This document shows, in pieces, positions 1 through 63,437 of a DNA stretch of 64,000 nucleotides. This stretch comes from Trichoplax sp. H2. Lineage: Eukaryota. The DNA lies in contig NOWV01000019.1 in NCBI GenBank assembly GCA_003344405.1, positions 496,001-560,000 on the forward strand, written 5' to 3'. A program made the translations under genes and the position numbers. Below the pieces are notes generated by a model. It had not been told where the DNA came from. It saw nothing but the letters and a program-made list of their open reading frames with translations, and did not search any database. Each line of letters opens with the position of its first letter. Within the stretch, counting starts at the first letter, position 1.

Positions 1-1747
1 CTTACAGTTCTAATCATTGTGATTGTAACTTATAGTAGATTGTAAATTATCTTGGAAATGTTCCGTGATAGGAAATGTCGCAATCTGATTATTCTGTATT
101 AGGCATTAGATGTCTATGATCGTAAATACAATTGTTTGCATTAGGGAGTAATAGCTAAAATTAGTATCTAATTCAGTGAATGATTCCAAAGTGTATCGTA
201 CTAACTATTGCAGAAGAGTATATAAACGCAATATATCGCGTAATAACGTTAATTCTTAAAGTTAGTGTTTAACGTATAATACGAGGCGTCTAGTCTTTGC
301 GTAGTCTGCTAGTAAAGCAAAAGTGTTCCAGATAGTGCAGATATCGTTCTTTGATACGTGGCTCAAGGAATTGGCATATTGATCGTACTTTACGTTATCT
401 GGTTGCGAAGCTGTTTGTGATAATGGTATACTTTTATAACCGAGAGTTTATCCTTGATCTTTATTATACGGTAGCTTTCAAATAATGATCACAAATCAGC
501 TTTAATCAGTCGAAATTTTCTAAATTTTTTTTATGTAATTTGGAACTACCATCGTTAATCCCATGTTGCCATATTTCCTTTGAAAGGAAAGATCGGTAAG
601 AATATTGCATTCGATTTCATTTCAAGTTGAAATGATTGAAACAGAGTTAATTTACCAACAGTTAAACCGCTAGTATAGCAATAGTACAACATCATGGGGC
701 GATAAAGAACACCGATTTGAAATCTGTTATTCTTATTTAGAGCAGCCATTGTGCAACCATTGACTAAAGAAAGGTTTATGTTGATACAAATAATAAATTA
801 GCGGGTCTCATTCAAATACTTCTTCATTAATGAGGTAGTTTTTCTTTAAGATTTCGCTACAGATGCGTAATCTCTTTTGTTTCTCTGTTGTCAACTTAGA
901 ATAGTGCGAACCTCCATTAGTAATCATTGCGGGCATTTCTTCAGTTTAATAATAAGCGCACTGTCTATTCTAATATTTTTTTGATATCATTTTACAAAGC
1001 ACAGTCAAAAGTCTAGACAACTGGCCGTGTGAGATTTTATTAATTTCCTATTTTGTACACTGACAGCAGGCATTATGTAAGATAATAAAATTATCCATGT
1101 GCCTTGTATTGAATGAGATCTTGCAATGTGCTAGGGTAGTATAAAGGAACAAACACTGCATATAAATTTTATAAGTACGGTATTATGCGATAAAGAACGA
1201 TCAGAAAATGAACATTCATGTTATTGACTTTTAGAAATTTGCTTAATGATAATACTCCATAATTTACAATGCAACAGAGAACCAATACTCTTTCTAGTTA
1301 TAATAATTCTTATTCGGCCCAATATCTTCTGATTCCATTTTTATTTATACTTTATTATATTGTCACACTTTATAGAGAAGGAAATTTTAGAATAGCTTCC
1401 ATTCACAATTGTTATATGATGAGATGCGGTTTTCACACGTAGGATTCGATGTTGAAACTCCTAGTTGATTATAGTAGCAATGGCTTACTTACGATGCCCA
1501 TTTGATAGTTTTTATGCAAAGTAAGGCAATAAATACTAACAAATGTAATGCTCTCAACACTATTTGTAATCTTTAGCCATTTTTAATGTAATCAGTAAGG
1601 AAATCCTCTTCATCTTATCGTCTTGCATAACTATTATAATTTATATAAAATGTAGCTGTAATCTGCTTATGACTATCGAATCAATTTTATATGATTGATA
1701 CTTTTCTAAATTCATGTTATTCTACCTTATTAGTATAAACAGATCAG

Positions 1748-4700
1748 ATGCCGAATCTATTTAAGTGGATGACTAGGTCAGCAACTCGCAGTAAAAGCCA
1801 GCAGCATTCCTTCGTGGAACAAATTGCTGAAAAATTTAATGGAGTTCGTAAGTATTGCGTGCTTATCTCTAGTAAAAGTTAGTTCTATTCTGTATTGATC
1901 TAAAAGATGATGTCTTATTATGTAAATGTTATGATAAGTAGTGTAAGATTATTTTATGGAAAAATGAATCTTTCCTTTATAAATATTGTAATCAATTCAT
2001 ACTTTTCGAAAAATATTTTGTCTGGATGGTTTGTATTTCGTAAATTAATTTTATCCGTGTATGTGTGTAATGTATTTAATAGTTCATTGGCACTATTAAT
2101 CTTTGTGTAATATTGATTAGTGCAACTTACCCTTTACCGCATGCAAGGAAGTGTTATATGGACTAGGCTACGCTAGTTTTATATTACATTATTTTGTGTG
2201 TAGACTCATACCAATATCACAAATCTCACTCTAAAGTATTCTAAATTAAACTAGCAATTAATTATATGTGATAAGATAAATTGCACCCTAGATTCCTAAA
2301 ATTACTAAATCAATAATATTAAAATCGCAGTTTTGGGTATAAATTATATCTTTCTACGGCATGCAGAACATAACTTAAAAAATCCACTACGACAGATCTG
2401 TAAATTAAATCAGAACCTGTATCGAAACGTTTCGGGTACATAAAGTATTCGATAATAAAGCAACATAACTGCTGATTTATTTTATGATTAAAAATTCGCT
2501 ACCAGATTTATCATAATTGAAGCATGAATACTATACAAATATATCGCCTAAATTGCAATCTTATATAATTTTTAACAAAAAATATTCCTAGCAGATATTG
2601 TTCGATTCTGACCCTAGTACAGTAGTCAAATTCACAATATCCTTAACCTTCATAACAGATTTATGTTATTTTGCATTATTTGACGTATAAAGTAAGAATA
2701 TTCAATTTTGCAAGTTTTACAACGCAGGAGTTTTCATTGCATAATATGATCGTAATTGGAGCTCTATTAACATTGCAATTGTGTTGGCATTGCAGACAGT
2801 AACTTCGTATTGGGAAGTACTAAAGAAAATAATCCAATTGTCTACTGTACGGATGGATTCTGTGAATTAACTCAATATAATCCGCAAGAAATCATTCGAC
2901 GAAATGGAAATTGCAATTTTCTGTATGGGGTTAAAACTCCACAGGATCATATTGACGCAATCCGGACAGCACTGGACGAACAGACTGAATTTCAAGTTAA
3001 AACTATCTTTTATAAAAAGGACGGTATGTTTCTATTTCTTTATGGCAGGGTGGTAATGATATCATAAGCATGGAAATTCAACTCTGCATTAATGATTTGA
3101 TAAGTGTAAACAACTTTCATTCTAGGATCGCCATTCGACTGTTTATTCGATATTTTACCTATTAAGAACGATGATGATAAAGTAGTCATGTTTGTTGCCT
3201 CTCATAAAGATTTATTAAATCAATCATTTGATGAATCAGGTAGGAAAGAGTATATCTATATGCTAAATGCATTTAAGATAATTAGAATTAGATTGTGCCA
3301 AATAAATAGGAACATTTCTCAGATTAATAGCGTGATTTTATTTTACAGTAAATGGCACTCTGTAGCATTTTAAAGCATTTTATAATAAAGCGCATAAAAT
3401 ATTCCGGTTAATTACGATATCTTATTATTTTCCTATAAAATACTAGATGGAGAGCTAAATAAGAATAATAGAGAATCAAAGCGTACCGTTAGTACCCTAC
3501 GTCGAAGAAACAGTCGGGCTGTCCTTTATCACCTTTCTGAACAACTTTCATTTAATGGACAGACTAAAACGGAAACGGATAAAATAACTGAAGTAAGGCT
3601 TAATGTTTGATGATTATCTTCACTTTTAAGTTGGATAACCCACATGCAATAATGCTATATTTTTAATAATATCTGATAATGTAAAATAGAAGATTAAGAA
3701 ATAAAAATGAATGGTGAATCTTACACATTCCCAACAATTCGGAGATGGCAAATTTTAAGTATTTTCTTTGTTATCTTTCATTAGAGACTAGTTTTAACCG
3801 CGAAGAATGCTAATGATGTAAAAGTTAAGCACGTTCAAAGGCCTATTTTCCTAATACTACATTATAGTCGATTAAAATTAGCTTGGGACTGGAGTATCAT
3901 CGCCTTGACATTTTTTATTGCAATTATGGTTCCGCTTTTCGTCGCATTTAAAATCTACAGTTTACCGGTAGTCATCCTACCTCAAATATGCTTCATTATA
4001 GATATTCTACTTAATTTTCGAACTACTTATATTGATAGTCATGGCCATATTGTATATCAAAGTAAAAGAATAGCCGCTAATTATATGAAAACTTGGCTCA
4101 TTATCGATCTTACGGCCTCTATCCCGTTAGAACTTATTATCGACTACGAAAATGCATCGCCATCTCTTCCGGTGAGTGGCTGTATAGAGCAAATTGAGAT
4201 AATTCATTAAAGATTTTATTACTGTTAATTACCAAGCTTAGCCTGCACAAGTTCGACTCATAGTCTAGTAAAGGTCTAAAATGGCATTCAAATGTCAGTT
4301 ATGCCATATCTTCCCAATCACATTAATAAAATAGTATAGTCTATAGGCCTTTATATAGTATTTAAATCATTCACTGCGCTACATACGGTATTAGATTTGT
4401 CTCGATTTTGCTTTTTCAAATTGTATATTTTTTTGTCTAATTTTGAATCATTGTCTTGACAGATTCGATGCATAGCCTTATTGAAATTGCTTCGACTCCT
4501 CCATCTAATTCACTTTATGGCCTATTGCGACCGTAAATTCGAATACAACGCTGCAGTTTTAGCCTTGCTATTACTATCGTTTGCAACATTAGCTCATTGG
4601 CTTGCATGTATCTGGTATATTATTGGAAATCGAGAGCTTATGAATAATCAGCGCCTTGGTTGGTTATACGAGCTATCGTTATCGCTCAATGAACCGTATT

Positions 4701-7700
4701 ATAACAGTACATCGGGTGGACCATCGCTGCAGGATAAATATGTTACCGCATTATATTTTACTTTAAGCAGTCTTACTACGGTGGGATTTGGCAATGTTTC
4801 TGGTAATACCACAGCGGAGAAAGTGTTCGCCGTCATAACTATGATTATTGGATGTAAGCTATTAGATTATCCCGTGGCAAATGTTCATCTTAGATGTTAT
4901 GCTGATATTTTCGATATCAATTACGCTAATTTTTTCTTTCTTATTCATATAGCTTTGATGTATGCCGTAATATTTGGTAATGTAACTGCAATTATTCAGC
5001 GAATCTATTCAGCTAGATCGAAATTTCGATCGCGAATGTATGATATCCGGCAGTTTTGTCATGCTTATCATTTGCCAAAGCAGTTAAAATATCGCTTAGA
5101 GGACTTTACTTACACCGATTGGTCCGTCACTAATGGCATTAACAAAGAAGAGGTAAAAATCGATTCGGCTTTTTATATACTTCGTTTTGAATTATGTGCT
5201 CTAAAATCGCTACATTCTGAAATACAGTATTTAATTTTGTTTATTTTTGTTTTTGGGTTGCTATCAGATAGATAGAATGATTAAGTAATTTTTTATTTTT
5301 GTATATCAATTTTTAAACGTACCAAAATTGAATTATCTGCCAAGTTTTGCAGACGTAGAATTAATTTGATCCCATGTTCTATCAATTAGGTTTTAAAAAC
5401 ATTACCTGTTGAGCTGCAAACTGATATCTGCCTGTACTTACATCGAGAATTTCTTGGCTTGTCGCTTTTCCAATCAGTCAGCAATGGCTGTATGAGAAAT
5501 CTTTCCAGCCGAATTCAAACAAGTTACTGTGCTCCAAGTGAGATTGTCATCTATGAAGGAGAGTTGTATCATCCTCTATATTTTGTCGCTAGTGGAACAC
5601 TGCAGGTCTTTCGAAATGATGTTGTCGTAGCGATATTAGGTACGTCAAATTATTCATGAATTGTGCCGACTTAAGCCTTTCGGTGAATCAAATTACCGTT
5701 TCACCTATCGTTGTCAATTAGCTATGGAATGTAAAAATTAACGATTCAGCTAAGAATATTGCTGTAGTACGTTAATTAAAGAGTAAAAGAGTATGATTGC
5801 TCTGCATTAATTTCTGCCATCTGTGTTCAGACATCGCTCCTTTAACTGTATATGGTTGTATACCTCAGGCTACAGTAATATTGACGTTGTATGAAATATG
5901 AGTTTTGATATACCGGCGTTATCAATAATAATATATTCACGGAAATTAATATTACCGTATTATATTTACAGCACGAATTCAGTCTTCAAATTTGATGCCA
6001 GTAGATGTAAGATTTTCACCTAGATGTACTGAGTGCATATTTGCAACATGTTTTACGAAATGAATCGGCTAGATTATGCTTTCCATCATATAGTGGTCAT
6101 TCGATCGAAATCGGCCATTTATACATTTAAATTAATGTTCATCAAGGCCGCATCGTAGATTGTATCTGAATTGTATAAGTTTTCGCCTTATTCTATTTCC
6201 TATTTGATTAATTAGGTCACGGTGATTTAATTGGGGAATTCCCACTTCAAAGTACAAGTTCCCATCTTCCAAAGTCTACTGGAACCGTTAAGGCCTTGAC
6301 ATATTGTGATTTACGCTACATTAATCATTTCGATTTAAAACAAGTTACTGAATCCTATCCTGAACTTGGACAAGTGCTACAAAATGAGTGGAATTTGGCA
6401 TATAATTTGGGAGAAGATGATGTACCGGTGAGCAAATATAAATAAATATGAATACCGAAATTGAATTACTAGCCTTGAAGATGCTGATCAGTTTGTGCTA
6501 CCAAGTAATAGTATTTCAAGCTATAGCATGGAGTTGAGCTACAATGGATGATGTTCGTAGTTAAGATTGCAAGATGCACAGTTATCTATTCATGATAGAT
6601 GTACATAATCCTTAGTAGAAGGATTAATTTATGTCATAAGTTAGTACGAACCGAAAGTTCTCGTCACATTATTTTTCAAATATTTTGCCACTAGCATCTC
6701 AAAATCTCAAGCAAATAGACTATATATATCTTTTCTTATTCGATAAACTTCGTAACATTAATACTATCTTAGAGAGAGACAATATGCGAGTTATACAAGT
6801 ACTATAATTCTATCCTCAAAAATTTTTGTAAGATTTTCTCTATCCTTACCTAGAGATTATAATTAGCTATAATGGAATTTCATCCGACATTTGCGTCAAT
6901 TTTAAAGTCTTAACCCAAATATATACGTATTCTATGATGTTAACATGTTTGTAATTAGTTTCAAACGTTCATATATTATATTTTTGCCAATAAATGCTTT
7001 ATATTAATAACTATCTTTGCGCAAATAGTTGACCATACCTAAGCAATATAACAATAATGATCCAGATGATGGTCGCCGAATGCCTTCTACGCCTAGATCT
7101 GCAAGTTTTAAAAGAATGTCATGGAGAAAGAAAAAACAGTGGAGAAGTGTAGGTAGCATTGGGGAAGATTCCATGGTACAGCCAGCAGAGAAACATGATG
7201 ATGGCTCTAGCGATGAAGGTAAGACATTGAAGTATGCATATTTTTTTCCAGAATGCAAAGACCTACGTATGTATCTGCTTGGATAGGAAAGCAGTAGAAG
7301 CTACGATAAACACAATTTATTTTACGGCTTGCATGTAGAATGAAATATTCTATTATCGTACGCTTATACCAATTGCTCCGCTTGGATGCCTATATTATCC
7401 AGGCTATTTAATTTAATATTTTTAATTTAAATTAATAGAAGTGAATAAAAATAATTTAATTAGTCGAAAGCTATACCGTAGTAAAGTAGCACTAACATAA
7501 TCGTATATATAAGATTGAATATCCATTGGCGGTAATAATTATTATGGTACTTAAGGAGCATTTATAGAATTAATTACACTTTTATAAGTAGTTTCCTATT
7601 TACTCCGATCCTATCACCAGTTACGACGCTACTGAATCGTGATAGAAAGTTTAAATTCGATTGCATTTCTTAAATGATTTTATTCAAATGCTAACGCCAT

Positions 7701-8510
7701 AGATACAAATTTTGATTGCATGTAATGTTTGAAAAGATATTAAATATTAAATTTTACTATCTAGATAATCACAACGAGAAAAATGCATCTGCTTCCATAA
7801 AAATTCGATCCAATCCTTTTGAACGCTTAAGCGCTCGTAGGAAGGACATTATCAAAGGTGGTCTTCGCTTTAATCGAAGTAAAGCTGCTAGCAAGCCCAA
7901 GTCTGTAACTAGTTCGCCTTTACTAGCTGGCAAAATGAAGAGAAGCGCCAGTTCGGTTGGTATCTCTAGTACCGATGATACCATGTTATCAAGAGGAAGA
8001 GCTCGAAGACCTAGTGATCCGTATTTAATGCATCATTTGCATGAAGGAAATAATGGGAATAAATGTGCTATTAGTAAGTTTTCAATCTTAGCTGAATCAG
8101 ATAATAACTTGCTCAGTGTCGAGCAACGATTTGAAGATGCTATGCAATCATTAAAAGCACGCTCACACGGTGGATCGGGTGAGGAGCTAGAAAATAACGA
8201 GGTCGCCCTTTCATTCTCAGTTGGTCTATCCAATGGAGCAATAAACGGCCATGATAGTACTAATAATAGTATGGATAAGGAGTATAGGCTCAAAAAAACT
8301 ACTAGTCAAGCAAGCTTGTCGGCCAAAGAAAAGCAAGAAATTCAAGGTGAAAATATGGAAACGATACAAGAACAACTTCTTGCTACTTGGGATACAGTTA
8401 TTAAAATGAATGAAAAAATAAGTCTCATGTCGGATGAAATAATTTTAGTAGCGAAAGATATAAAGGATTTAAAGGACATAGTTTCTGCTGAGAAGCAGAC
8501 CATACTATAG
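1748..8510 (+). CDS. EAG-family (KCNH) voltage-gated K+ channel, ELK/Kv12 subfamily; 11 exons, about 987 aa
   Basis: Exons 1748-1847, 2796-3023, 3126-3239, 3447-3592, 3785-4171, 4463-4853, 4953-5152, 5390-5639, 6216-6427, 7029-7218, 7765-8510 are all GT-AG and phase-compatible (2964 nt). PAS cap/PAS (HSNFVLG..PIVYCTDGFCELT), ELK-like RRRNSRAVLYHLS, FIIDILLNFRTTY, pore SLTTVGFGNVS, C-linker, CNBHD with AYNLG, and a probable C-terminal coiled coil. Confidence 0.93.
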
Positions 8511-9443
8511 AATGATGTATAGTCCAACCTTGGATATTTTTCTTCACTTTATCGATACTTGTAAATATAAACATAATAATGTTGGATTGATTTCAATTAA
8601 CTGTGCATGCAACGCTTTGAATATATTCCTAAGCAATCAGCTAATTGAGGTGGTACAGCGAATACCATTTGATTCTATATAAGATGATCGATAGCAATAC
8701 GTACATGCCATATTTCTGATATGCACTAACTTTAATGATTCTTATTTAAGTAGACCATGTTTGTTTGCCACATTTAGTTAATTTATAATCTTCATACTGA
8801 CATTTCGATTTTTGATAATTTATCGGTCCTATTTTTCCAAACCTTAGTAAAATTCAACTTGTTCTGCACTACTGTATATACAGTATAAAATAAACTAATT
8901 ATTAATGATTGATTAACTTGGGATTGTAGGCAAGGGTATAATACACCCTCAATATATATTATGTAAAGGGTGGACAAACTTACGACTTTCCTGAAAATGA
9001 ATTAGAGATGATTAATAAAACTCTTTGTCGTCTATCACTGCTTGTTATACGTCATTTGCGAATGCATAATATACTTGCTTAGTGCACAGAAAGTAGCTTT
9101 GAGTAATAACGTTACTGATTCAAGTCAAACAATAGAAGTCGACTCTCTGCAGAAGATACCTGGTAATAGTCAACATGTTCTTTTTTTAATCTATTTAGAA
9201 ATGCATAATGAATGCATATGCAGCGTAAGCTATTGGAGAATGCAGGATCCTTTATTGGTCAGCATAGTAAAAATTTTTTGACAAATAACGAAACGACCTT
9301 CCTGTCATCTTATTATATACATATATATATATATAGAACAGCTTCCCTTCTTAATCATTTAACTATCTCTGTGATCTTCCCATTGCAAGATGTAAATGTC
9401 CAAGAGTGATATCTAGCCTATGTACTTCAGTTCAGTAAAAATT

Positions 9444-12400
9444 TCAATCGTTTAATTCCAAATTTTCTAGATCCTCATCTATGTCATCCATAAATAAATC
9501 TTCTTCTATTAATAAGCTTCCACTATTAGCAGTGGCGTTATCGCTACTGCCAGCGACGGCAGCATTTCCATCATCTGTAACGTTGGAGTAACCTGCAGCC
9601 TCTCCTAATTTGTTATCATCGCCATCATCAGCAGCGTTTCCTTCCTTACTTTTACTAGCACCTGTAACAGAGGGTTTATTACATTACGACACTGTATTTT
9701 TCATAGTTTCAGAGACATCCACGCATGGCAACTCAAAACTGGTTAATCTAGTAAGGATATCATAATGGATTACCCTTTGATGTCGTCTTCTTCGACGTTG
9801 GCTCATCATCTGTAGCTGCGGCAAGTAATTCTTCAAAGGTTAAATCAATGTATTTTACGTTACTTGTCTCATCTGTTTCTGCCTTTCGCTCGAAAACTGC
9901 CTCTTCTTCGTCATCGTCGGCTTCTTCAACAAGGCTAGGTTGAAATTGAAAAACTTCTCTGCCACTTATCTACAGCGCACCATTAGAGCAAATACAGTAT
10001 TATAAATTGAGTAAAATAGTACTAACATCTGACATAATTTTTGTTCATGCAACATTTTTTTGATGTTATAACGGCGATATAACAAGGTAACAGTCACTAA
10101 CTCCAATGCTTCGTCCGGCTTTTAGTTCGGCTTTTTTCTTCTTCGTATCTGCTTCTTCTTTCTTTCGTTTCGCTTCCAACTAGTATAAGAGATAAAGTGA
10201 ACCATTAAATAATATCCATTATACACATCGAAATACTAAGTTGTCGATATTATGTTATGATAAGATCAATTACCCTATTCTTCTTCCAAACTATGAAAGT
10301 TTCATACGTAACTTTAGTTAGCTCTGAACCTAGATTCGCCCTCTAAACAGTGTAGTTTAATTGAACTTTATTGTGAGACAGTCATTTTCAACATTGTTGA
10401 ATTTCACTTTCATTTCACATCAATCATTAATCAGAACGAACCTTTGTTTCTATAAGTTCTTCTAGTGATGTGGTTTCATCTACTTCATCCTTCTTTGAAT
10501 TTTTTTTAAGCACAAATCCAGGTGGAAGTGCATGTCGATACATACATTTGTTTCCGCCATTAGGGCATGCCCAAAACCAACCATACAGACCTTTTTCAAT
10601 AGCTTCTAGAAAGTACTTGCAAACCTAACATGTGTATAGTTACCAATTCAATAAGGTAAAAGTCCAACACAGAATTGGGTAATCACTGCGATACATTAGT
10701 AGAGTAACAACGTACGATTTCAGTTCTAGGTTTGGCTTTTTCACTACCGTGCTTCTTGTTTACAACCTCCTCTAACTTTTCTTGATCCCATTTGTCCATT
10801 GTGTCTATGTGAATCAATATTAAATTTGATAAGGCAATTTTTAAATTGACCATTAGTGATATATTGAAATTATTTGACGCTAAATGATTTTAGAAAATCA
10901 GTTTTAATAACCATCTTTTAAGTCGTCTTCATCTCTTGAGTCAATATATACACTCCTTTTCTCAGTTTTTCGATCCAAGGACATATCATGAGAAAATTTG
11001 CATTTATCACCTTTACTACAATTTCCTTGCTTGTAAAAGGCACACAAAAGCGACTTTGGGTCTGCTCCTAAGTATTCAAATAGATGGTGATATGATAAGA
11101 CACCTGATTCATGCTCATCATCCGTCTTGTTGTTCAACCACAACAGGGCAAAAATTGCTAACGCTGTTGCCATAGCTAAAAGATACCTGCAGAAGCTTTT
11201 TGACTGACAGGTCTAAATAACTTCTCCATTTCATCTCTTTCTTTTTGTGCTTCGCTTTTCTTTTTCTAATATGGAAACAACAGTTGTTAGCCTATTGCTT
11301 TACAGGTATTTTTGAGTTCAACTTTGTAAACTACCTAATACAGCTATTGTATATTATTTCTACAATACTCGCATGACAAGCAGTGACAGAAATTGAATAA
11401 AAAGGAGTTGTAAAGAGATTTGGTAATCATGGCAAGTTCTTTCGATCAGAAAAGCCCAAGTCTAGACTATTGATACAATCACTTTGCCATGTTATACTTA
11501 CTTTATCCTCAAACTTTTGCTGTTCAGCCTGTTCAAGTCATAAAGCGCAATATTATATTAGCATTCATCAATCCGTCAATTTAACTGCAGTAATCTAAAC
11601 ATGTCAATAGGTCATTGAACTGTCTGACCTTGTTTGGACCTTGTTGTCCATATTTAACCTATAGATAAGTATACATCAATGGAAGACGCATGTTAATCGA
11701 ACTTTTGTATGAAAACACATGCAGTATAGTCATGAAGACTCTTCAATTATTATTAGTTTTCAACTGCTCGTATAAAAGTTGGTAGTTTGGTAGTCAACCA
11801 TTGGATGGATTGAAATCAGTCGCAATGACTTTCCGATTATAATGTCCTGTATCATCTATAACGTCCTATTGATGGTGGTGTACATTAACTTACCTGATTG
11901 GATAAGTGCTTAACGTACTCTTGCTGCTTTTTACCTTTTTTATTTTTTAAACCGAACGTTTTGTCCTAGAAGCATATTATACCGTTCATTAGTACATTGT
12001 TAACGTTCAATTACGTGTTACTCGATCTATTCCTACGAATGTTTTTAATGCAGATAATGATCGAATCGATTCTAGTGTAGACATTTCCATCATTTCTCAA
12101 CCGAAATTCTCTACCTATGCCTACAGTTGGATCGAGCTACCTATTGCTCATGGTTAAGGTAGTACTTTACGTGCATCTACTCGTATTGAGTTTGATCGAT
12201 GCCATACTCATGTCCGCTATTAGTAGACTTGCAACCATTTGGTAGATGATTTACATAACTAGTCAAGACTGAAGAGCGATGACGAGTAACTTATTGAATT
12301 TAAAGTTGTACACATGGTAGACTAATCGATCGTCAAGCTCGAATTGGAATTATCATCGATGGTCAAGCGATCCATCGATTCTGTAGATGTTACAACACTT

Positions 12401-23823: not shown

Positions 23824-26800
23824 TTAAGTAGTAGTGGGTGCTTTCCAATTACATTTTCTTCCAGTTTCATAGCATGCAATTAACTTTTGCCTGAAATTAC
23901 CCATTTTAATAGTATTGGTATATTTATCATACAAATCGAGAGCAGTGACAGCATCTTCAATGCTATCATGAGTTTCCGTCTGAATATTACGATTCAAAAA
24001 ATACCACGCTAGGAACCGTAGGGACAAATAACGTTGTCGTTCAAGATGGTATATTTCCACCGTATCGATAACTTGCTCATTAGGTACCTATTTTGACATT
24101 AGGATAGGCGGCATTTGATATAATTTTAATACTACATACATGAAGTATTAGTTATGGAAGTGAACGCTTTTAATTACAACGCTTGATCAACTTACTTTAA
24201 TATTGATAACCCTAAAATCTTTACGCAAGCCATGTCCAACAAATATTACACCTCTATCAATGAGACAGAGTAATTTTCGATAGCTCGCCTTCAAAGTGGT
24301 GAGATACTTGGTTGATACCATCGGATCTAAGTCTCCAGGGCGAATACCAGAAAATTCAGTGAGGTAATCGACAACCTGTGGAGAAAATGTTGGCAATAAG
24401 CTATGATTGCTACCGGAATAAATCTGATATAATATACAATAAATGTTCAGAAAATCATCGATATCGTAATAATTAAGATATTTATAGTAATCTATTTTTG
24501 GTATCATAGGTGCATTATGGAGAACTTTCAACGAAATGTATTAGTATCAATAAATAACATGACAAACCTGTTCGCTTGTTGAAATATAATCATCAATAAA
24601 AGCTGTTCCACGTTTCGGTCCTGATCCGTAAATGACCGAAATTCTAGCTACACTCATTTGACTTGGTTTTATAGTTGATCTTGTACCATCAGAATGAATT
24701 TCAGCTTCGTCCTATCCATACGTAACAAGCAATTTTTTATTGGTGTTTTAAAGTATTTATCAGTGACTATATGTGATAACTAGCAATAAAATTAGGAAAA
24801 TTATCATTCGTAATGTCTACATTAATGTTGACCTGATTTAATGATACAAATTCAGTATCAAGGCCGACGAGATCTCCTTTGCCTGGTAGGTCTTCCTCTA
24901 GCGGCGTTACAAACGAAGACGTACTGATTTCGGGATTTTTATTTAGTGATTTATCCGCAAGGATGATCTGAGGGTCGTCACGTAGGTGTACTAATTGTAA
25001 AATTAAAGGGAAATTTGCGACTTTGAGTTAAGTAAGAAGAATTTTTCACAGAAAAATTGATCCATATTTTACCTCCACCTTCGAAATTTTGAAATACGCT
25101 AGCTTTAATAAAATATAAAATACAAGGTATTTGCCAATCAAGACTAAAGCTTGAGGAATCGACCTAATCAATGGTGAATAATTATCCAGGTCAGGAATTG
25201 TTAATTGTTCGTTATTGAATTGACTTGCAAAATGAAAATATTTGATACCGGCGGGATAGGCGTGATAGAGAAATCATTGATGAGATACCAAGTCGTGTGC
25301 CGTACGCCCTAATGCAGCAGTGGAGAGTTTAACTTAAAAAAAACAAACTTTCATTGTGTAGTCACAGAGCATGTTTACCTCCTTTAATTCGTGATATTCA
25401 GGGCCTACTCTAACGTGAGCAATTAAATTACCGCCAACGTAGTCATTCTTAATTTGACAAATATTAGCAAACAAATAATAGATGTTGCTCTCATCTTCCG
25501 GTTCTGTTTCTTTCTGTTAGGAAAATGCGTGATAAAGGAATATTCAGAGTTTATAAGTTTTGACTTGAACTTTGTAATAATAGTACTAAAATCATGTTAG
25601 TATATTAAAATCATGGGGTATCTGGTCTCTCTTCAACCATACTTTGGAGTCGATTGTGTTCATAACTAGTTCGTCATCTACGATCTGAGCCTGGATTTTA
25701 TTGGGTAGCCAGTGCCTGCTAGGTTAAATCATGTAGAATAATAGTAAACATACCGGAATCGATAATTCATTATGAGCTCTATTGTGTTCAGCCTTTACTG
25801 CTAACTTATCATCAGCTATTTCAAATGTGCAGTAGCAGTTACTTAAGTAATATACATTTTAAATATCCTTCTCCTAATAAGACTTCCTGTAAGAAGTACC
25901 AACAATCAAATAACGGTGAATTCAGATCATAATAAAATATATCTATGATGTCTTACCGAGGTACTTCTTCAGCGCTATCGCCTTCTTGGGTAACTTTCCG
26001 ATTATTCCATACCTGTATACAACAATATCAGATACATAGTTGAAACCTAATATGGCATATTCTGTCGTTAAGTATTAAAATTACAGCTACCATGTCCTGA
26101 TATTTCCAAAAGTGAATGCCTTCTTCATTATCAACTTGGCAATTAATTGCAAGTATATCAGGCAGATTTTTAACTAATCTTGTTTGAGTGCTTGGTTGAT
26201 ATTTCTGACATCGTTCGCACCAAGCAAAAACATTTTGTGTTTTTGACATACTAGATAGTAGGACTGAGCAAAAGGAATGGGTTTCTATTTCATTGGAATT
26301 AGCCTGCTTGTCTTTATTGGGTTGCGATGATTTACTTGGATAAGTAAGTGTATAAAGTAATGTAGAAGATGTTCTAACATCTTTATTTTCACAGCCGCAT
26401 TTGGTAATAATTTCCAATTTACTTTCATACAACTTCAAGAACCACGCTCCATCATTGTCTGTAGCTTCAGACTTGTCATCTTTTTTGTAGGTGTCTCTAG
26501 ATAGCTGTTGTAATACAAACAGATGCCAACTTTGAATTAGATGTGCTAAATTTGCATTTTTATAAGCTTCTTCGGTGTCCGGCAATATCAAGCCTAATCC
26601 AGCGGCTTCAGGTATTGCTCGAAATGCACGAAGAAAGTTATTAGCCTAGAATGGAATCAAATCCTCGTTATGTTACGGTCGATAATTAAGATAATCGCTA
26701 AATTCAAGACTAAGAATCAACCTGGCATGGCTGTCCTTTCGAATAATCTAACATTCGGAAAAGAAATCCTAATTCACACGCGAAACAAGGCTCTTTGTCG

Positions 26801-29800
26801 CATGAATGGTTTTGCAATCCGATACACATGGGCCGTAAGAAGTATAGCACCTGCAATGGAAATTACAGTGATTAGGTAGTTGCTTTGAACTATATTGATT
26901 GGGAATAAAAGTTCGATTGCTGTGTAGAGTGATCATTACCTGCAGCATAGAGTTACAATATGCGTTGGGTATATCAGTCTCCAAACCAGCAAAATTGGTT
27001 CGATTGTATGACTCAAAGTTAAAATCTTCTAAGCCTATCCAAATAAAGCAAATCATGCTCAGAGTTATTTCGGAAATAGGAGGTAAAATTTTTACTGTAA
27101 CGTGAGCATCTTTCAATTCTAGCGTAATTTTTAACTTACCAAGTTTGGAGTACTTCATAGCTACACGATGATAACGCTTTGGTATTTCACCATAATATTC
27201 ACTTAACGCATCTAATTTATGTAATGACGTAACATTACGAAAGAGATCTATATATACTTATGCCATTGTAACAGGTGTGGATTTTCAAACCTTGCTCCTC
27301 ATCAGACTCATTATTGTCCATAATATTGTCATCTAATTCATTGGCATTAGTAGCGCGAATTGTGTAGGGCATCTAATAACAAAGAGATTCAATCTTTACA
27401 TCTTTGCATTATCTTTAACCATAACGTTTAAATTAAAATTAAATTAAACATGCCTGATTGCGTTTGTAATTGACCGGTGCCGGAGCATATCCGATAAAAT
27501 TATTCATTTTCATGCTTTCTAAAATTTTCGGATCTATGGGTGCTAAGCGCCTTTAAATTATTTTTTAAGTAATTGCTATTAGACAATTTAAGTTGAAATG
27601 AAAAACTAACAAGATGCAAAGAGATGATAAGTTACATCTTCTAAATAAAATTCAAATCTTGCTTACCAAGTTCACGCACTTTTAACGAAATGAATGATCT
27701 ATCTAAATTGTCCATGTTAAACTATATAACGCTAACCTGTCTTTCACTTCTGTCAATTCATTGGACCAATCAGATAACAGCCTACCGCTACTATATACAG
27801 TAATATAAATAATCATTGTTAAAATGCACTTTAGAATTTGGGTAGTTTCAAAGATGTGAACAAAATACAAACTTGTCATAAGTGTAATCCATAGGCACCG
27901 TAGACAATCGTACAAAAGGATCGTTAATATCGAGGTATGGCAGCCGATTTTCCTATACATTGTTAATACATTACATGACAACTATAAAATGATTTTTACG
28001 ACTATAAATGACCAATATAAGATCGTAGCATCTCAAACACAAGTATTGATAGCCACAATATTGATTAGAATTTATTACATCAGCTGCAAATTCAGTTGGT
28101 TGTCCAAAATTATTCATCATAGCATCTTCTCGATTAGTCCAGACATGCAGATACCCTTTAACATTTGCATCACATGAAAATATTAACATATACTAGTATA
28201 ATTTTGCTAAGTTAGAATTTGAAGACTATGATCACAATTAGTCATTACACTTGATACAATGATTTAACATAACGGCATTACTCGTGTAAATTGGTTAAGC
28301 CATTGCAAACTTATTATGTCGTTTAATAAGCTGGCCCTACCTTCACTATCGCCGAAAGCAAATACTTGGGCGGATGGCGATACATCAAAAGCAAGTGGGT
28401 AGCCAGTAGATTCGATTTGTTGAACAATTAGGCTAGATGGCGTTAGCGGAACTCCTGGTTCACAAATTTGAAATTGGCCAGTCTAAAACAAAGCATATCG
28501 AATTATTATTATTATAGTAGGTTAATGATGGCTTTATTACATATAATGACAGTGGCTAAAGAAATTGTTACTTACATGGGAAACCACGGCCAACCGGGAA
28601 GTATAATTTGGCATAAATTTTAACAAAGTAGGATCGAAGTGAACCTAAAAATAATACAAGACTGTTACAGGACAGTATCTTGGACATTCTCGATATGTGC
28701 AGTCGCCAACATAAATATCATCGCCATACAGCCTCTATGCTTACTTGTATCGGATTTAGTGCTCTCATTGATCGTAAATCATACATCATCAGAAATCGAT
28801 CGCAATTTAAGTGACTATGTCTAATAATTGAAATTGTTAGTTTAGTGTACATCGTTTTGATTCGTAATTAAGTGATAAGACTTTATAATAATGGTAACGT
28901 CTATGGTGAACCTTGTTGAAAAGCCGCATGTTACGAGAAAATTATCGCTAACATCAATATCAGAAATAGAACCAGAATGAGCATCAATAGCGTTGATGCA
29001 CTGAAGCGTTGAAGGATCATGTAATGTCACCTATCACAAATTCACAATTTCAATTATTTCTTGACGGTATTAAATATAGCATACATTACAAGGTTAATTC
29101 AATTTTAAGGTAATTTAAATCAAGCTGGGTAACAATTGATGCTACGCGTAGATAGATACCTTTCCGGTAGTAGTTCCACAGCAAACATAACCAGATTTGT
29201 TGGAATAACGCAATACGGCATTAGAGCATTCAGTACTAGCCTAAATAATAAAGATGTTTATAATATCATTGTGTGATATCAGTTCCAATTTATGACTTAA
29301 CTTAAGATCCTCTTCATTGTACCTCTACTGAAAAGTATATTTATATCAGACTAAAATGAAAATCAGTGGTACGAAGAGAGGGGTGAATAAATTAACAGAT
29401 AATTTACTGGTATAAATTTTAAACTACTGAACAAGAGTGATTAAGCAAGTTGAATTCGGAATTAAATTAACATGTATATGTAGAAATTTTATATCAAGAT
29501 CAGTACAATATTCTGGCTTTACAAGTTACCTGTTTAGTGATTTTAGCTGATCTAAGATCGACTTGTGTTAGCAAGTTATTTTCGCCAGAGATGTAGGTTT
29601 TATCATGATTGGGATTGAGACACATACACTGCATATAATACAGCGAGGATTCATCTCTGCAATATCAAGAAATCATGTATTAATAAGGAAGAAACTAATA
29701 CCATAGATAGGCTGCTTTTGCAAGATTATAATTTGCCCTGGCTCTACCAGATTTAATTTGCAACAAATCTTTTATTGGCATTTAGGAAATGCGCGTTAAC

Positions 29801-38800: not shown

Positions 38801-40258
38801 TTAATCTATTATTGCATAATAATTTGCAATATTACAATTCCGAAAAGATGATACTAAAAATAACTAATCAATTATAAAAAACTCTTCACTTTAGATACCT
38901 CCTTTGGGAAAATCTTTCGAACTTCCTGTAAGTAAATAGATAGCGCTACTATAATTATAGACAATGTGTCTGCACTACTATGGGCATAGCTATGTCATCT
39001 GCACTACTATGTGTAACAACTATTCTCAAAATTATTATTAATAAATTACTTATTATAAAATTTCTTGACTTTAGGAACGCAGACGCGGAAAGTCTTTCGA
39101 ATTTCCTGTAAGTCTATAGATATCGATACTATAGCCTGCAATAATACTATTCTTAAAGGCAATACTATTAAACAGCTCCTTATAAAACTTCTTGACTTTA
39201 GGAACACAGACGCGGAAAGTCTTTCGAATTTCCTGTAAGTCTATAGATATCGATACTATAGTCTGCAATGATACTATTTTAAAGGCAATACTATTAAACG
39301 GCTCCTTATAAAACTTCTTGACTTTAGGAACACAGACGCGGAAAGTCTTTCGAACTTCCTGTAAGTCTATAGATATCGATACTATAGTCTGCAATGATAC
39401 TATTTTAAAGGCAATACTATTAAACGGCTCCTTATAAAACTTCTTGACTTTAGGAACGCAGACGCGGAAAGTCTTTCGAACTTCCTGTAAGTCTATAGAT
39501 ATCGATACTATAGTCTGCAATGATACTATTTTAAAGGCAATACTATTAAACAGCTCCTTATAAAATTTCTTGACTTTAGGAACGCAGACGCGGAAAGTCT
39601 TTCGAACTTCCTGTAAGTCTATAGATATCGATACTATAGTCTGCAATGATACTATTTTAAAGGCAATACTATTAAACGGCTCCTTATAAAACTTCTTGAC
39701 TTTAGGAACGCAGACGCGGAAAGTCTTTCGAACTTCCTGTAAGTCTATAGATATCGATACTATAGCCTGCAATAATACTATTCTTAAAGGCAATACTATT
39801 AAATGACTTCTTATAAAATTTCTTGACTTTAGGAACGCAGACGCGGAAAGTCTTTCGAATTTCCTGTACGTCTATAGATATCGATACTATAGCCTGCAAT
39901 AATACTATTTTAAAGGCAATACTATTAAACGGCTCCATATAAAATTTCTTGACTTTAGGAACACAGACGCGGAAAGTCTTTCGAATTTCCAGTACGTTAG
40001 TAGATATCGAAATATTGATCTGCGATAGTACTATTGTCAAAGCGATATTAGTTTATCAAAAATTATAAAAATTTTTGCAATATGAACAATTTTTTGTAAA
40101 TATTTCTATCGATACAATTATGGAATTTGTGTAGTTTTACTGTTGGCCATTAAATCCCTACAAAATCAAGTGATTGATATCCGCATTCTCAAATAATATT
40201 AGTGCAATACTAATTGTGATAAATTTCTATGTTTCAGGAACGCAGACGCTGGAAATAA
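35864..40258 (+). CDS. ELPE: Secreted neuropeptide precursor, ELPE type (GKSFELPE/GKSFEFPE repeats); 11 coding exons, about 171 aa
   Basis: Exon 35864-36061 encodes a signal peptide (MRSIILICLLFLFAAKVNS) and an acidic spacer. Nine phase-0 33-nt exons follow at 38895, 39075, 39202, 39328, 39454, 39580, 39706, 39833 and 39959, each flanked by ctttag and gtaagt/gtacgt. Terminal exon 40238-40258 encodes ERRRWK*. The name is recalled from the placozoan peptide GKSFELPE. Confidence 0.88.
39020..40020 (+). repeat. 126-127 bp tandem repeat, 8 copies; each unit is one microexon plus one intron
   Basis: Exon starts are spaced 127, 126, 126, 126, 126, 127 and 126 bp apart; intronic parts are nearly identical. 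Confidence 0.97.
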
Positions 40259-47310: not shown

Positions 47311-48211
47311 TTCAGCAAATAAAATAAATACTACAGTAAGGCTTCAAAAGATAAAAATAATTGCAGACGATAGAATATAAAATTCCTTTTATCCATGGAA
47401 GGTGTTACTAACTAAACAAGCGATTAAAAGGAGTTGTGGCAACAAGAACGCGTGCCACATCACCCTATCCTAATACTATACGTTGCATGGCCAACCCTTT
47501 TCTTCGACACCAAATGATCCCTTCCATTTGAATACAGTACAGTAAATCGAATGATTTAAATTTCTGTGCACAATGTTTCTGTTTACCTTGAGTAATAGAG
47601 ATATGACAATCACGAATAATCAACGACCGTTGCCATATCCAGTTCAAAGATATTACCCTTACTCGCAACCAAGCAGGGAAATGTTGCTGTCATGACTGTA
47701 TAAGCTGTTAGATTGAATTAGAGAAGTATAATTATTGATCCAATTCTGCATCCACGTCGTTTAAGGGATAATAGAATACAAAAGAAGAATCTATTTTCTA
47801 TTCATCCATATTAATGGCCTCCTATCTTGACGTGAAGAACCAATCGAATGTTATTGATGTTTTCTCGTCTTGTTTTCATTAACGCAGTTGCTGAGCTCTA
47901 TGTTTAATTACGCAACCTCAGATTGGACTTTGATATTGTATTTAAAATATACAGTCGTTAAATTATTGTCTTCAATCAAGTGTGGGAAGTCCAAGTGTAC
48001 TATGTTGGCAAAAAGAATGGATAGATGCAATTTTTAATTGGTAGGTTAGACTTTCATTGTCATTATCGACTTGATAAAAGTTAGTTTAATCGTTGTAAAA
48101 TATCTTTTGAATGATACTCTTCCTTCAGGCTAATTGAAAAAGGGAAAGGGAAGAATCGCGTTGAATGGTAAAGTTAGAGTAGAATTGAAGACTGGCTCAC
48201 TGTTGCAAAAA

Positions 48212-51200
48212 ATGGCAATATTACCGGATAACATTAATGTCGATAGTGTACTGGATGAAATTGTACAGTCGATGAAGAATGTACATCAATTGGATAAAAC
48301 GAAACAGTTAGTTTATCAATTAGATAGTAAATCGATCATCGATAAGATAATTGATCCTTTATCTGTGGCCACAAAAATCATTCAAATTGTTCAAAATCAT
48401 TATCAGACGATTGGATTTGAATGGCTATATCCATTACTTCAGTTTGCTCGAGAGAACGTTATTTTTTCAAATTTGAATGACATCATTGGCCAAGAAAATC
48501 AACAACGAATCCTCTCTACAATTGGCTGTGTTGAAAATTTGAAAGAGAAAATGCTCAAATTAATTAAGGACTGGAATGAGACAGAAAGTTACAAAATGAC
48601 GGATAATCTTCCACCCTATCCAATTTATGCTGAATTAGATATCCTATATCAACTCTTGCATGCTATATTAAATCAAGATCCAACGGGTCTTTTCCAAAAA
48701 ATACATAATGTATACAATAAGTGCTTTGATATTATTGAATCTGTTTTGATTTATGATTGCCAACGATTAATTGCTTTGGTTCAGGAATTAAAAGCTTGGA
48801 TAACTACCGATCTATCTTATGTCAGCCATTATATCTATTTAGACATTATGAATAAAATTATCGGCTGCAGCTATTGCAGTTTTAATCAAAGAGAATTTAC
48901 CTATTCTGGTGGTCAAATTTATTACCTAGATGGCTCTGTTTTTGTCATGGAACCGTATTACTCGATCTGGAATGTTGTTCAGAAGACTACAAGTTGGAAA
49001 TCATCCACTTTCCAATCCAATATTATTCTACAGAAAGGAATAACCGATACCATTAAAATATTTCAATCCATCAAATTACCCATTAAAATTAAAGACCAAA
49101 TTAAAGTCGATTTAGCCAACATGATGAGTCAGTTGAGTCATCCCTATCTCGACTATTTAATATGGTATCATCGGCAGCCACTAGCAGAAATAGTTCACGA
49201 TGATTTATTAGCCAAGCTAACACTACTGGAGTTATCCCCTAAATATTCAGGGATGGCAGTTCAATTATCTGAACTCGAATTCATTCCACTTTTAACTCAA
49301 CTACCAACCATCATCAATTTACCTTCATCAAAAGAAACTTTAATACAACGCCATCATTACTTCAATCAAATCTATCACGAGATGGACGTGCAAGGTCATC
49401 ATTCAATGGTCTTGTCTGGTCTAGCTGGGGTTGGGAAATCATCATTAGCTCTTCATTATGCTCGATCACATACAATCCATTACAATTGCATACATTGGTT
49501 TCATGCCGAGACAGAATTATCCTTGCAACATGATTTCATAAAATTAGCCAAGGCAATCCTGAGAAATAAACAACGATTCCATTTAGAAAAAAAACCCCAA
49601 TTGGATTCCATTCGCGATTGTTTAGATCAATTTACGGAGAATTCTGAATTGCTACAGTCCGTTGGCGATAATAATATTATTATTGCATCACAATTAAAAA
49701 CTTGTGATGAACAACGGATTGATCTGATCAATAAGCTTGTCCAGGCTACCTTGGATTTTATACTTGGCCACTATTGCTTTTTACTGATTTATGATAATGC
49801 TGACCAAGAAGAAATCGTCCGACGCTATATGCCTCAAAGACAAGGTCACGGTCTTGTACTGCTGACATCTCGGTATGCTAACTGGGGCGATGTGGAAAAG
49901 ATTAACATTGATTTATTCCAACGCCAAGAATCCATTGATTATTTGCTACAACGAACCAATTCAGAGGATAAAGAATCTGCTGATTTAGTTGCCAATCGAA
50001 TTTGTGATTTACCTTTAGCCTTGTCGCAAGCTGTCGCTTATATTCAACGTACTGGTATTTCACTAAGTGGATATCATGCACGATTAATGGCAGAAGAAAA
50101 TGATATTGCTCAAGATAGTTACTCATCTGCATATTATAAAAAATATCAGCAAGTCGACTCTGGACAAATTAAATTAAGCCAACAACTGACGCCGTTGACA
50201 ACATGGTCCTCTACCTTTTCTCAATTAGTTACTAATAATCCCTCTATTCAATCCATGTTTATGCTAATTGCTTATATTCAAGTAGACCAGTTAACAGATA
50301 ACTTATTATTCGAATTTTGCCAACTACAAGATCCCAACACAAAAAGAGAAGATTATAACAATGCCATCTGTGGCTTAAATCATTATCATGTTTTACATGG
50401 CTGCCCAGAGGGTAGTTTACCTAGCTATAAAACGAATAAATTAATCCAAATGGCTATACGCAATCATATCTTGGAAATTGTTTCAACTCAGTTAGGACAT
50501 TCATTAGGCGATTGGATATACGTCCAAGATATAATCTTATGCCGAATTTTAGTCTATTTTGTTGATAAGCTAAGTCATGATGAATGGATCGAATCCGATG
50601 ACCAGACTGTTGGCCAAAGTTTAAACTTAATTTATCATGCTGATCAACTTCGGCAACATTTATTAAATAGCGAATTACTATCCCATCAACGCTTGATGTT
50701 AGAAGAAAAAATGACTAAAATGTACACGACAATCACCAATCCATTATCTCAACTGGAGATGAATATTATGGCCAAGATTGAAACTTTTAAAATGGCGCGT
50801 AAGTACTTCTATTCGTGTTTGTGCATCCACATTTTTCGTTACTTTCAAAAATTTCGGTTGTAAATCATTTTATTTTCGCCTCTATACTCGTTGTTGATTC
50901 ATGCCTCATGCATACTACCTTGGTGTTTTATTCCCCCCTCCATACTCATCATTGATTTATGCCCTATACATATTATCTTGACTTACCGGAAACCAACAGC
51001 AGAGTATTTAAATGTTTACTTTTAATACTGATTATTTTCAACATGATCGTAGTCGGGTTTTTTTTATCAGATCTTGCTACCTAGCATTCGTATAAGTAAC
51101 ATTTTACGAATAGTTTACGGCAGGATAATTAAATCAATTAGCATATTTACATATTGCATATCACAGAATGAGTAACAATTCCCTAGTTTATGTTCATTAC

Positions 51201-62100: not shown

Positions 62101-63437
62101 TAGAATGTGGCATTGGCCAAGATTACTTGCTTTTGGATTGCAATTGAAATACCGTGTAGATGTCCATATTTGTCCTCGTCCTGGATTATCAGACACTAAA
62201 GCGCAATTATTCAATAAAATAAATGCTCATTAAAGTGTGTTTCGTTGATCGATTTTAAAAGTAACAAGTGCAAATCCAACATATACAGAAATGGTATTAG
62301 TTTAGATGCTCATGCCAGTAACAGTGGCTATCATAAACTGATCGCAATGATTAAAATTATGAAAAAAAAATAATTTGTATGCCAAATATTCTTAAAATAA
62401 TCAAATGGCCTCTAATTTATCACAATATACTAAATAATGATCTAGACCTAAATTCTATGGCACTGTGCATTTTCAAATGTTATTATAAGCAATAAGTGTA
62501 CCCCTAGCTCCTAAGACTGCTTCGTTGTACTGATGGAATTAACATATTAGCAAGAGACCAATAAATAGACGATGCTATTAAGTTTTATTATAGTATTATA
62601 TTACTAACTTGCAACCGTGCCAAATTCGCTTTCATTAGCTTGACGGCAAATTACAGAAGCCACTAATGATGTTTTATTATTTAAGCATATTGTTCCCCAT
62701 TGTTCGCGATGATAAATTGCAACTCGGCCAGAATTTAAGACTGAATAATATTTGCGAGCGATCATAATTGGATAAATACCTGTTTCATGAACAATAAGAA
62801 TAGCAAGTATTGAACTATCAAGCTTTTATTGCAATGATTCTTACGCTATCAAATACTTAGATCTACAAGTTCAGGTGTCATAAAGCATTATGTCAAGAGT
62901 ATTTGAGCAAGCAATGACTGAGCTTTAGTGCGGCTTGTTAGCTTACTGCCTAACGGGTAAGGTGGAGTATTGACTTTAGGGCGTTTGCAAGCCGTAATAT
63001 TGCATGATTGCCAACTTAGATTGGATAAGGTAGTATAGCACCATGGAGCACTACGAAGGCCTCCAGGATTTCGACAATAATTAGAAGATAAATCATCATC
63101 AGTATATAACGACGAATTATAAGGGTGCGAGTGAGGATTCTGTGAATTCCAAGATTGGCAAGAGTAGCCCTGCTTGGTAATAGATGTCTTTCCGCGATAA
63201 CCTTGTCCTCGATCACTGTAGCAATCAGTTTCTAAGGAAAATAATGATATAGATCAATTAATGCAGTTGCTTGAATAATTTGATATTCTTATGTCCCTAT
63301 CTTGTCTTGTTTAATCATAAATTGACTTTATTTAATTTACTTTTACGTTGTGCTGACTTACCGATTGGATAAACAGAGACATCATCGATGAAAATGTTGC
63401 TGTTATATAGGTTAATTGCAATTCCGCGTAGCAGGAT
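59170..63437 (-). CDS. Type I membrane protein, 5'-incomplete: MAM end, kringle, SRCR, SRCR, divergent MAM, TM, cytoplasmic tail
   Basis: Exon 63437-63362 ..SNIFIDDVSV; exon 63231-62947 kringle CYSDRGQGYRG..CQSWNSQNPHSH..NYCRNPGGLRSAPWCYTT; SRCR GRVAIYHREQWGTIC..ASVICRQ and GVICAVGWNNFAADVVCRQLGY; MAM-like CIFCDGFCKW..EAILRSP; TM GGIIAGCIGGLIFMLFITCAII; stop at 59170-59172. Confidence 0.8.

Follow-up and report, generated by a model that had tools for sequence, protein, structure and literature searches.

How does a potassium channel sense voltage when two consecutive gating-charge positions of its S4 helix are occupied by histidines? This question is raised by a KCNH (EAG-family) K+ channel gene of the placozoan Trichoplax sp. 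H2, located on contig NOWV01000019.1 (GenBank assembly GCA_003344405.1) within the 64,000 nucleotides from 496,001 to 560,000 of the forward strand, which we refer to as the window and in which all coordinates below are counted. Replacement of S4 arginines by histidine is a classic laboratory probe of sensor motion and a cause of channelopathies, and natural examples are very few. A preliminary description of the window had reported an ELK channel with histidine codons at two S4 arginine positions and an intact pore. We compared the gene with its relatives, with public transcripts and with solved structures, and we weigh here what such a sensor may do.

Histidines and lost charges in the voltage sensor

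Exon 6 of the gene, which encodes S4, aligned to hERG without gaps through this helix (phmmer against PDB, E 4.5e-43; query residue 4 is residue 521 of the 1159-amino-acid hERG chain 8io4). The other PDB matches of exon 6 were Eag1 and Eag2 at about 1e-30, and no Elk structure was among the matches. In-frame reading of the + strand from 4463 reproduced the S4 string given earlier, with CAT at 4502 and CAC at 4511, and the hERG S4 string with which it had been compared agrees with our alignment. The alignment also upheld the assignment of the two histidines to the equivalents of R531 and R534 and the absence of the charges of R537 and K538. The S4 positions, in hERG numbering, are as follows:

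4472-4537, + strand: S4 (in-frame reading from 4463, hERG alignment and relatives)
4484-4486, + strand: K525 position, AAA, Lys kept
4493-4495, + strand: R528 position, CGA, Arg kept
4502-4504, + strand: R531 position, CAT, His
4511-4513, + strand: R534 position, CAC, His
4520-4522, + strand: R537 position, GCC, Ala
4523-4525, + strand: K538 position, TAT, Tyr
4529-4534, + strand: D540 and R541 positions, Asp and Arg kept

Only two of the six periodic S4 positions are therefore basic, where the usual family pattern is K, R, R, R, R or Q, K. Among named proteins, TRIADDRAFT_30951 of T. adhaerens (P0001) comes closest: it is 98% identical over exon 6, has an identical S4 and differs from the window protein at a few residues.

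Three protein searches together with a cluster look-up yielded 401 relatives; S4 was covered in 333 of them, a redundant set with many vertebrate orthologues. Lys at the K525 position and Arg at the R528 position were present in all 333. The R531 position held Arg in 329 and His in 4, of which one is P0001 and the other three are isoforms of a single fish KCNH4-like gene; the R534 position held Arg in 322 and His in 2, one being P0001 and the other a KCNH4 of a turtle. For the R537 position we counted 273 Arg, 56 Gln and 2 Pro, with Lys and Ala once each, and for the K538 position 319 Lys and 11 Arg, with Tyr, Asn and a gap once each. The complete K-R-H-H-A-Y pattern was found in a single relative, the T. 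adhaerens orthologue P0001. In a metagenome scan, which yielded 80 loci (S4 covered in 79, none above 59% identity and none placozoan), His occurred at the R531 or R534 position in none of the 79. The rarity of the S4 pattern exceeds chance.

Single natural histidines elsewhere were those of the turtle KCNH4 (P0115, R534 position) and of the fish KCNH4-like gene, which is truncated (P0180, P0269 and P0271, R531 position); sequencing errors are possible in both. Ten metagenome loci (L024, L028-L031, L033, L034, L036, L038 and L051) encode KCNH channels with His at the D540 equivalent, at the foot of S4, and two of these ten form a long-branched sister group near the window protein in a quick tree.

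We compared positions 1700-8600 of the window with RNA contigs from four public runs of three studies; two runs are recorded as RNA-Seq, and the other two, though their contigs are spliced, are presumed to be RNA. The comparison gave 46 differences, of which 40 are listed, and all statements on variants refer to these 40. No differing letter was listed in the histidine codons at 4502 and 4511 in any of the four runs, and the only difference listed in exon 6 was 4632 G>A. The exon start proposed at 4463 was reproduced by the joint 4171>4463 (GT..AG) in 4/4 runs. The spliced contigs thus carry the histidine codons unchanged, and neither transcripts encoding Arg nor another S4 exon were seen in them. 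Two candidate ways around the histidines were rejected. An alternative S4 exon found no place, because tblastn of P0001 returned a single locus with a single S4 exon and all four runs use only 4171>4463; His-to-Arg RNA editing would appear as A>G at 4503 or 4512, which was listed in no run. Because assembled contigs lose rare variants, a minor edited or alternative transcript is possible.

The change in the sensor is wider than the two Arg-to-His replacements, since two acidic residues of S2 are gone as well. We aligned the window protein with 157 relatives in hERG numbering (113 of the 158 rows distinct), and this alignment assigns the following positions:

3971-3973, + strand: Val at the D456 position, the outer S2 acid
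3983-3985, + strand: Gln at the D460 position, the EAG-specific S2 acid
3992-3994, + strand: F463 kept
4001-4003, + strand: D466 kept
4106-4108, + strand: D501 kept
4130-4132, + strand: Glu at the D509 position

D411, F463, D466 and D501 are shared by the window protein and 157/157 relatives. The D456 position, by comparison, holds Asp in 149 relatives, Glu in 5 and Val (P0001), His and Asn once each, and the D460 position holds Asp in 145, Glu in 11 and Gln in P0001 alone. According to Kazmierczak et al. 2013 (PMC3664700), D456 is the universal S2 acid and D460 and D509 are an EAG-specific pair, and all three positions are acidic throughout the channels of the EAG superfamily. In the window protein, D456 is Val and D460 is Gln, so that only the D509 position is acidic, as Glu. 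The same source states that in hERG (Kv11.1), Kv10.2 and Kv12.1 the shift of activation with pH becomes much smaller once D460 or D509 is neutralized. With F463 and D466 kept, the histidines at the R531 and R534 positions would place a residue other than Arg at the charge-transfer centre, as in natural gating-pore or proton-shuttle sensors such as Hv1 and N.at-Kv3.2.

Gene structure, constraint and family position

The gene has 11 coding exons, and one spliced form is common to 4/4 runs, with ten introns that are each GT..AG and a 980-codon frame that is open across all joined exons. Its parts are:

1769-8510, + strand: KCNH (EAG-family) K+ channel gene, 11 coding exons, 980 amino acids, ATG at 1769, stop at 8508-8510
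1769-1847, + strand: exon 1 (joints in RNA contigs)
2796-3023 and 3126-3239, + strand: exons 2-3, eag/PAS domain (Pfam PAS_9 on P0001)
3447-3592, + strand: exon 4 (joints in RNA contigs)
3785-4171, + strand: exon 5, S1-S3 of the voltage sensor (alignment over 157 relatives, RNA joints)
4463-4853, + strand: exon 6, S4, S4-S5 linker, S5, turret, pore helix, filter and start of S6
4778-4792, + strand: selectivity filter T-V-G-F-G (aligned to hERG)
4953-5152, + strand: exon 7 (joints in RNA contigs)
5390-5639 and 6216-6427, + strand: exons 8-9, cyclic-nucleotide-binding homology domain (CNBHD; Pfam cNMP_binding on P0001)
7029-7218 and 7765-8510, + strand: exons 10-11, C-terminal tail (joints 6427>7029 and 7218>7765 in 4/4 runs)

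The domains were detected on P0001, where residues 33-132 match PAS_9 (2.9e-16, 60 bits, cut-off 27) and the six-helix ion-transport domain matches Ion_trans (2.1e-22) and Ion_trans_2 (2.7e-11). The CNBHD, which the preliminary description had considered intact together with the pore, was detected by cNMP_binding (2.7e-08, 34.1 bits, cut-off 27.5). It ends in Y-N-L, where the consensus of the relatives is x-N-L, and we take this motif to be the 'intrinsic ligand'. A Pfam search of the C-terminal tail (exons 10-11) and an Rfam search of the window gave no match. Compared with the RNA contigs, the public 667-amino-acid model P0001 reads beyond the exon 3 donor at 3239 into part of intron 3, has a shortened S3-S4 linker because its acceptor lies 11 bases into exon 6, and ends in intron 9, so that exons 10-11 (about 310 residues) are missing. 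The window encodes an intact, transcribed EAG-family channel subunit with a PAS domain, six transmembrane helices, a GFG pore and a CNBHD.

Some contigs touched introns of the gene. In run X6, a contig starting in intron 4 continues unspliced into exon 5 (window 3605-3784) and a second one covers the end of intron 10 (window 7399-7792); neither was seen in the other three runs, and intron retention, RNA not yet processed or an internal start may explain them. In intron 1, 39 bases (2226-2264) were matched by comparatively deep contigs in 4/4 runs, and beyond these bases the contigs diverge from the window in both directions; this suggests that a second, more abundant transcript contains the same short repeat.

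We then asked where the protein departs from its family, taking as conserved the 131 columns with at least 95% agreement among 143 relatives. The window protein differs at 24 of them, distributed as follows:

S1-S3: 9/31 conserved columns changed
S4 and S4-S5 linker: 5/13 conserved columns changed
S5-pore-S6: 1/50 conserved columns changed
C-linker and CNBHD: 9/37 conserved columns changed

For comparison, the median relative differs at 0 of these columns, the 95th percentile is 11 and the most divergent relative differs at 35. The voltage sensor overall is changed at 14/44 conserved columns, and the changes in the S4-S5 linker are, in hERG numbering, Y542K and S543F. The single difference in the pore module, together with the GFG filter, agrees with the earlier impression of an intact pore. 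The conduction pathway has been held fixed and the gating apparatus has shifted.

Variation among strains was read from the 28 coding differences among the 40 listed, 12 that are intronic or past the stop being left out. There were 16 synonymous and 12 non-synonymous differences; residues 1-650 had 11 synonymous and 4 non-synonymous ones, none of them in S4, and the C-terminal tail had 5 synonymous and 8 non-synonymous ones. In the sensor exon the numbers were 4 and 1. These counts are a rough sign that points to purifying selection on the core, and they pool several strains and thus differ from a formal dN/dS, the ratio of non-synonymous to synonymous substitution rates.

Three more distant placozoan fragments, P0402, P0302 and P0157, are nearer to the gene than other animal sequences are, yet they are not near-identical to it. 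In P0402 (S1-S3, 73% identity, ungapped) the Val and Gln of S2 and the Glu of S3 recur; in P0302 (87% identity) and P0157 (78-79%) the R537 position is Thr and the K538 position Tyr. More distant relatives thus also lack the outer acids of S2 and the lower charges of S4, and both losses have been maintained.

The ELK label given to the channel in the preliminary description is not established. By cluster names, Gln at the R537 position corresponds to Elk (KCNH3, 4 and 8) and Arg to Erg (unc-103, KCNH7). In the rooted quick tree, with two metagenome loci as Eag outgroup (one of them, L075, matches KCNH5 at 4.7e-80 in the PDB search), the window protein fell on the Elk side (support 96) and outside the bilaterian Elk clade (95); in free trees it fell outside the Erg crown clade (100 and 99). 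Approximately unbiased (AU) tests rejected neither a position held with Erg, as its sister (p 0.519), nor one held outside Elk and Erg together (p 0.518); the free quick tree scored 0.64 log units worse than either constrained tree. At 27 Elk-versus-Erg diagnostic columns the window protein has the Elk state at 11, the Erg state at 7 and neither at 9. Two Elk markers in S4 are absent: the R537 position and the outer S4 position three residues before K525 are both Ala, and the His that marks the latter in 47/55 Elk-type (Gln) but only 1/255 Erg-type (Arg) relatives is not present in the window protein. We therefore regard the protein as an EAG-family channel that probably lies near the Elk/Erg split, with ELK membership unproven. 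The sequence D-H after S4 was considered as a marker of the Eag subfamily and rejected, because rows with D-H fell inside the Erg clade.

Possible function of the altered sensor

Our preferred reading, to which we give slightly less than an even chance and in which all electrophysiology is inferred from sequence, is a K+-selective tetramer with a low, pH-dependent voltage sensitivity. K525 and R528 would supply the fixed gating charge, and the two histidines would add charge only if protonated. The inner acidic cluster may favour this state: lying beside D466, D501 and D411, the histidines would have a raised pKa, and their protonation would add gating charge and shift gating with pH. Because K525, R528, the charge-transfer Phe and the inner acids, the minimal parts of a sensor, are kept, S4 would be expected still to move in the field. 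In hERG, most of the gating charge reportedly comes from K525, R528 and R531, and the deeper three residues are said to be stabilizing; on these roles, at most about two thirds of the fixed charge would be left, and the third carrier would be titratable. The usual external proton and divalent site of the family would at the same time be disabled. With D460 gone and the D509 position still acidic as Glu, this site (D460 and D509) is half missing, and any pH effect would therefore need another origin.

Published work on other channels describes related behaviour. According to a 2014 review (PMC3982104), S4 Arg-to-His replacements lead to a proton-selective leak or to proton transport, and the transport in Shaker requires that the histidine have alternating access to the two sides. 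Experiments on KCNQ1 (PMC2154355) link its charge-poor lower S4, which includes the natural His240, to a tendency towards a voltage-independent 'leak'. A bolder form of our proposal would make the two consecutive titratable histidines the third and fourth gating charges of a sensor maintained in placozoans, so that protons set K+ opening and S4 ferries protons; it would include a co-evolved removal of the acidic proton site of the family and would be the physiological counterpart of the Shaker Arg-to-His mutants. We consider this form rather improbable.

Several observations weigh against a pH-tuned, working sensor. Depending on their pKa in the S4 setting, the histidines may be neutral and inert. 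The open reading frames of P0302 and P0157 begin at a Met just after the second histidine, so that both His sites lie outside them, and on present alignments conservation of the histidines themselves appears demonstrated only among near-identical strains. The terminal branch of the window protein measures 1.64-1.67 changes per column where the median branch has 0.34-0.38, and a branch of this length also fits a past relaxation of constraint on gating; the strain counts that point to constraint carry the pooling described above. In an AlphaFold2 prediction of P0001 with 35 relatives (mean predicted local distance difference test, pLDDT, 78.8; predicted template modelling score 0.49), PAS, S1-S3 (pLDDT 74-90), pore and CNBHD were confident, and the weakest membrane part was S3-S4 and S4 (residues 301-340, block means 56, 55, 67 and 62). 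The model adds little, because P0001 has the wrong S3-S4 joint.

The strongest competitor is a voltage-insensitive or constitutive K+ channel whose sensor is locked or uncoupled, whose histidines are neutral with no role in pH and which is governed by the PAS/CNBHD module, lipids or partners. Such a channel could well have lost four of its six S4 charges and two outer acids, acquired Y542K and S543F in the S4-S5 linker and changed 9/37 columns of the C-linker and CNBHD; the charge paucity of the lower S4 of KCNQ1 favours constitutive activity (PMC2154355), and placozoans have no neurons (bioRxiv 10.1101/2024.12.09.627618). However, K525, R528, F463 and the inner acids would not be expected to persist in a sensor that no longer works, the presence of His at both sites rather than just any neutral residue is left unexplained, and the 4 synonymous against 1 non-synonymous differences in the sensor exon argue for constraint. 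We regard this explanation as possible but doubtful.

The long branch and the atypical sensor would also suit a regulatory ('silent') subunit, one that needs a second placozoan EAG-family subunit as partner in order to conduct and that tunes the resulting heteromer. Animals have repeatedly evolved regulatory Kv subunits (PMC9989356), and several placozoan EAG-family genes are implied by bioRxiv 10.1101/2024.12.09.627618. The almost unchanged pore, S6 and filter speak against such a role, as does the fact that protein searches, which did not include the genome itself, turned up no paralogue; moreover, the known silent subunits named in PMC9989356 belong to the Shaker family and not to EAG. We judge a silent subunit to be unlikely.

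Less likely again is that a proton shuttle or gating-pore path through the sensor is the main physiological output. Two consecutive S4 charge positions do carry His beside a kept charge-transfer centre, Arg-to-His replacement yields an H+-selective leak or transport elsewhere (PMC3982104), and in the flatworm channel N.at-Kv3.2, where His and Gly occupy S4 Arg positions, ions pass through the sensor (PMC2443804, PMC3982104); the placozoan sensor would be a natural counterpart of this omega current and of the Shaker mutants. Against this, the K+ pore is the most constrained module of the protein, which speaks for K+ conduction as the function under selection. The proton fluxes of engineered His mutants are, in addition, reportedly small.

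An artefact or a decaying gene (sequencing error, mis-called exon or pseudogene) is very improbable, because, although the P0001 model is wrong at the acceptor of exon 6 and ends early and the branch is long, the same codons occur in the window, in P0001 and in the RNA contigs of four runs, the ten introns are GT..AG around a 980-amino-acid open frame, synonymous changes predominate in the core, and linked changes are common to more distant relatives.

Comparison with known channels and further observations

Among solved structures, hERG (Kv11.1, KCNH2; Erg) is the best match. The two proteins share the domain order, the GFG filter, a near-identical pore and S6, the D-R...E-Y motif of the S4-S5 linker and D411, F463, D466 and D501, and the placozoan channel differs by R531H, R534H, R537A, K538Y, D456V and D460Q. 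The Elk channels (Kv12; KCNH3, KCNH4 and KCNH8) are nearest by tree path length and have a similar hydrophobic L-L spacing in S4, but the placozoan channel lacks their Gln at the R537 position and their outer S4 His.

Natural histidines at S4 charge positions are also described for KCNQ1 and N.at-Kv3.2. KCNQ1 (Kv7.1) has one of these and a neutral lower half of S4 (PMC2154355); it belongs to another family, its one His is deeper and four Arg are kept, whereas the placozoan channel has two consecutive His after two fixed charges and has lost the outer acids. N.at-Kv3.2 of a flatworm, which carries an omega current, has His and Gly at S4 Arg positions (PMC2443804, PMC3982104). It is a Shaker-type channel in which the first and third Arg are hit; in the placozoan channel, the third to sixth positions are affected. 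Engineered or disease-causing Arg-to-His replacements in Shaker, Nav and Cav channels also place His at gating-charge positions, and the review credits voltage-driven proton transport to Starace and Bezanilla 2001 and 2004 (PMC3982104). Those are single laboratory or disease changes in an otherwise complete sensor, whereas the placozoan replacement is natural and double and is accompanied by four further charge losses.

The first placement of Trichoplax EAG-family genes is reportedly due to Li et al. 2015 (J Exp Biol, PNAS). The gene has long been public and already appears in published EAG-family trees (bioRxiv 10.1101/2024.12.09.627618). In the full texts searched, a scope that leaves aside the Li et al. 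2015 papers and supplementary alignments, we found no mention of the peculiarities of its S4 and S2, and the word 'Trichoplax' has 0 occurrences in PMC3664700. The natural gating pores named in the 2014 review are only Hv1 and one flatworm Kv3 channel (PMC3982104).

The channel is of interest mainly as a natural experiment for channel biophysics: a double His and four further, compensating charge losses stand beside an almost fixed K+ pore in an animal free of neurons. If it can be expressed, it would test how far the fixed charge of an EAG-family channel can fall before voltage gating is lost, whether histidines in S4 can act as a physiological pH sensor or proton shuttle, and what role an EAG-family channel has in non-neural epithelia. 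If it proved voltage-independent, it would document a voltage-gated channel turning into a leak or ligand-modulated one.

Elsewhere in the window, an open frame at 39071-40052 (- strand) consists of tandem units of about 43 residues, with weak Pfam matches and no stretch that passes on its own. At 48134-50863 (+ strand), a P-loop-like G-x-x-G-x-G-K-S motif lies in an uninterrupted open frame of 909 codons, which matched nothing in Pfam at E 0.001 and may encode a STAND-type NTPase. Single-exon Pfam matches mark neighbouring genes at 24187-27257, 10904-11212 and 62888-63253, all on the - strand. Among the neighbours, one with a UCH_1 match (9.9e-39) and an RNase_T exonuclease exon looks PAN2-like, and others are marked by an exon with a CCCH zinc finger and by one with a Kringle domain (3.9e-24).

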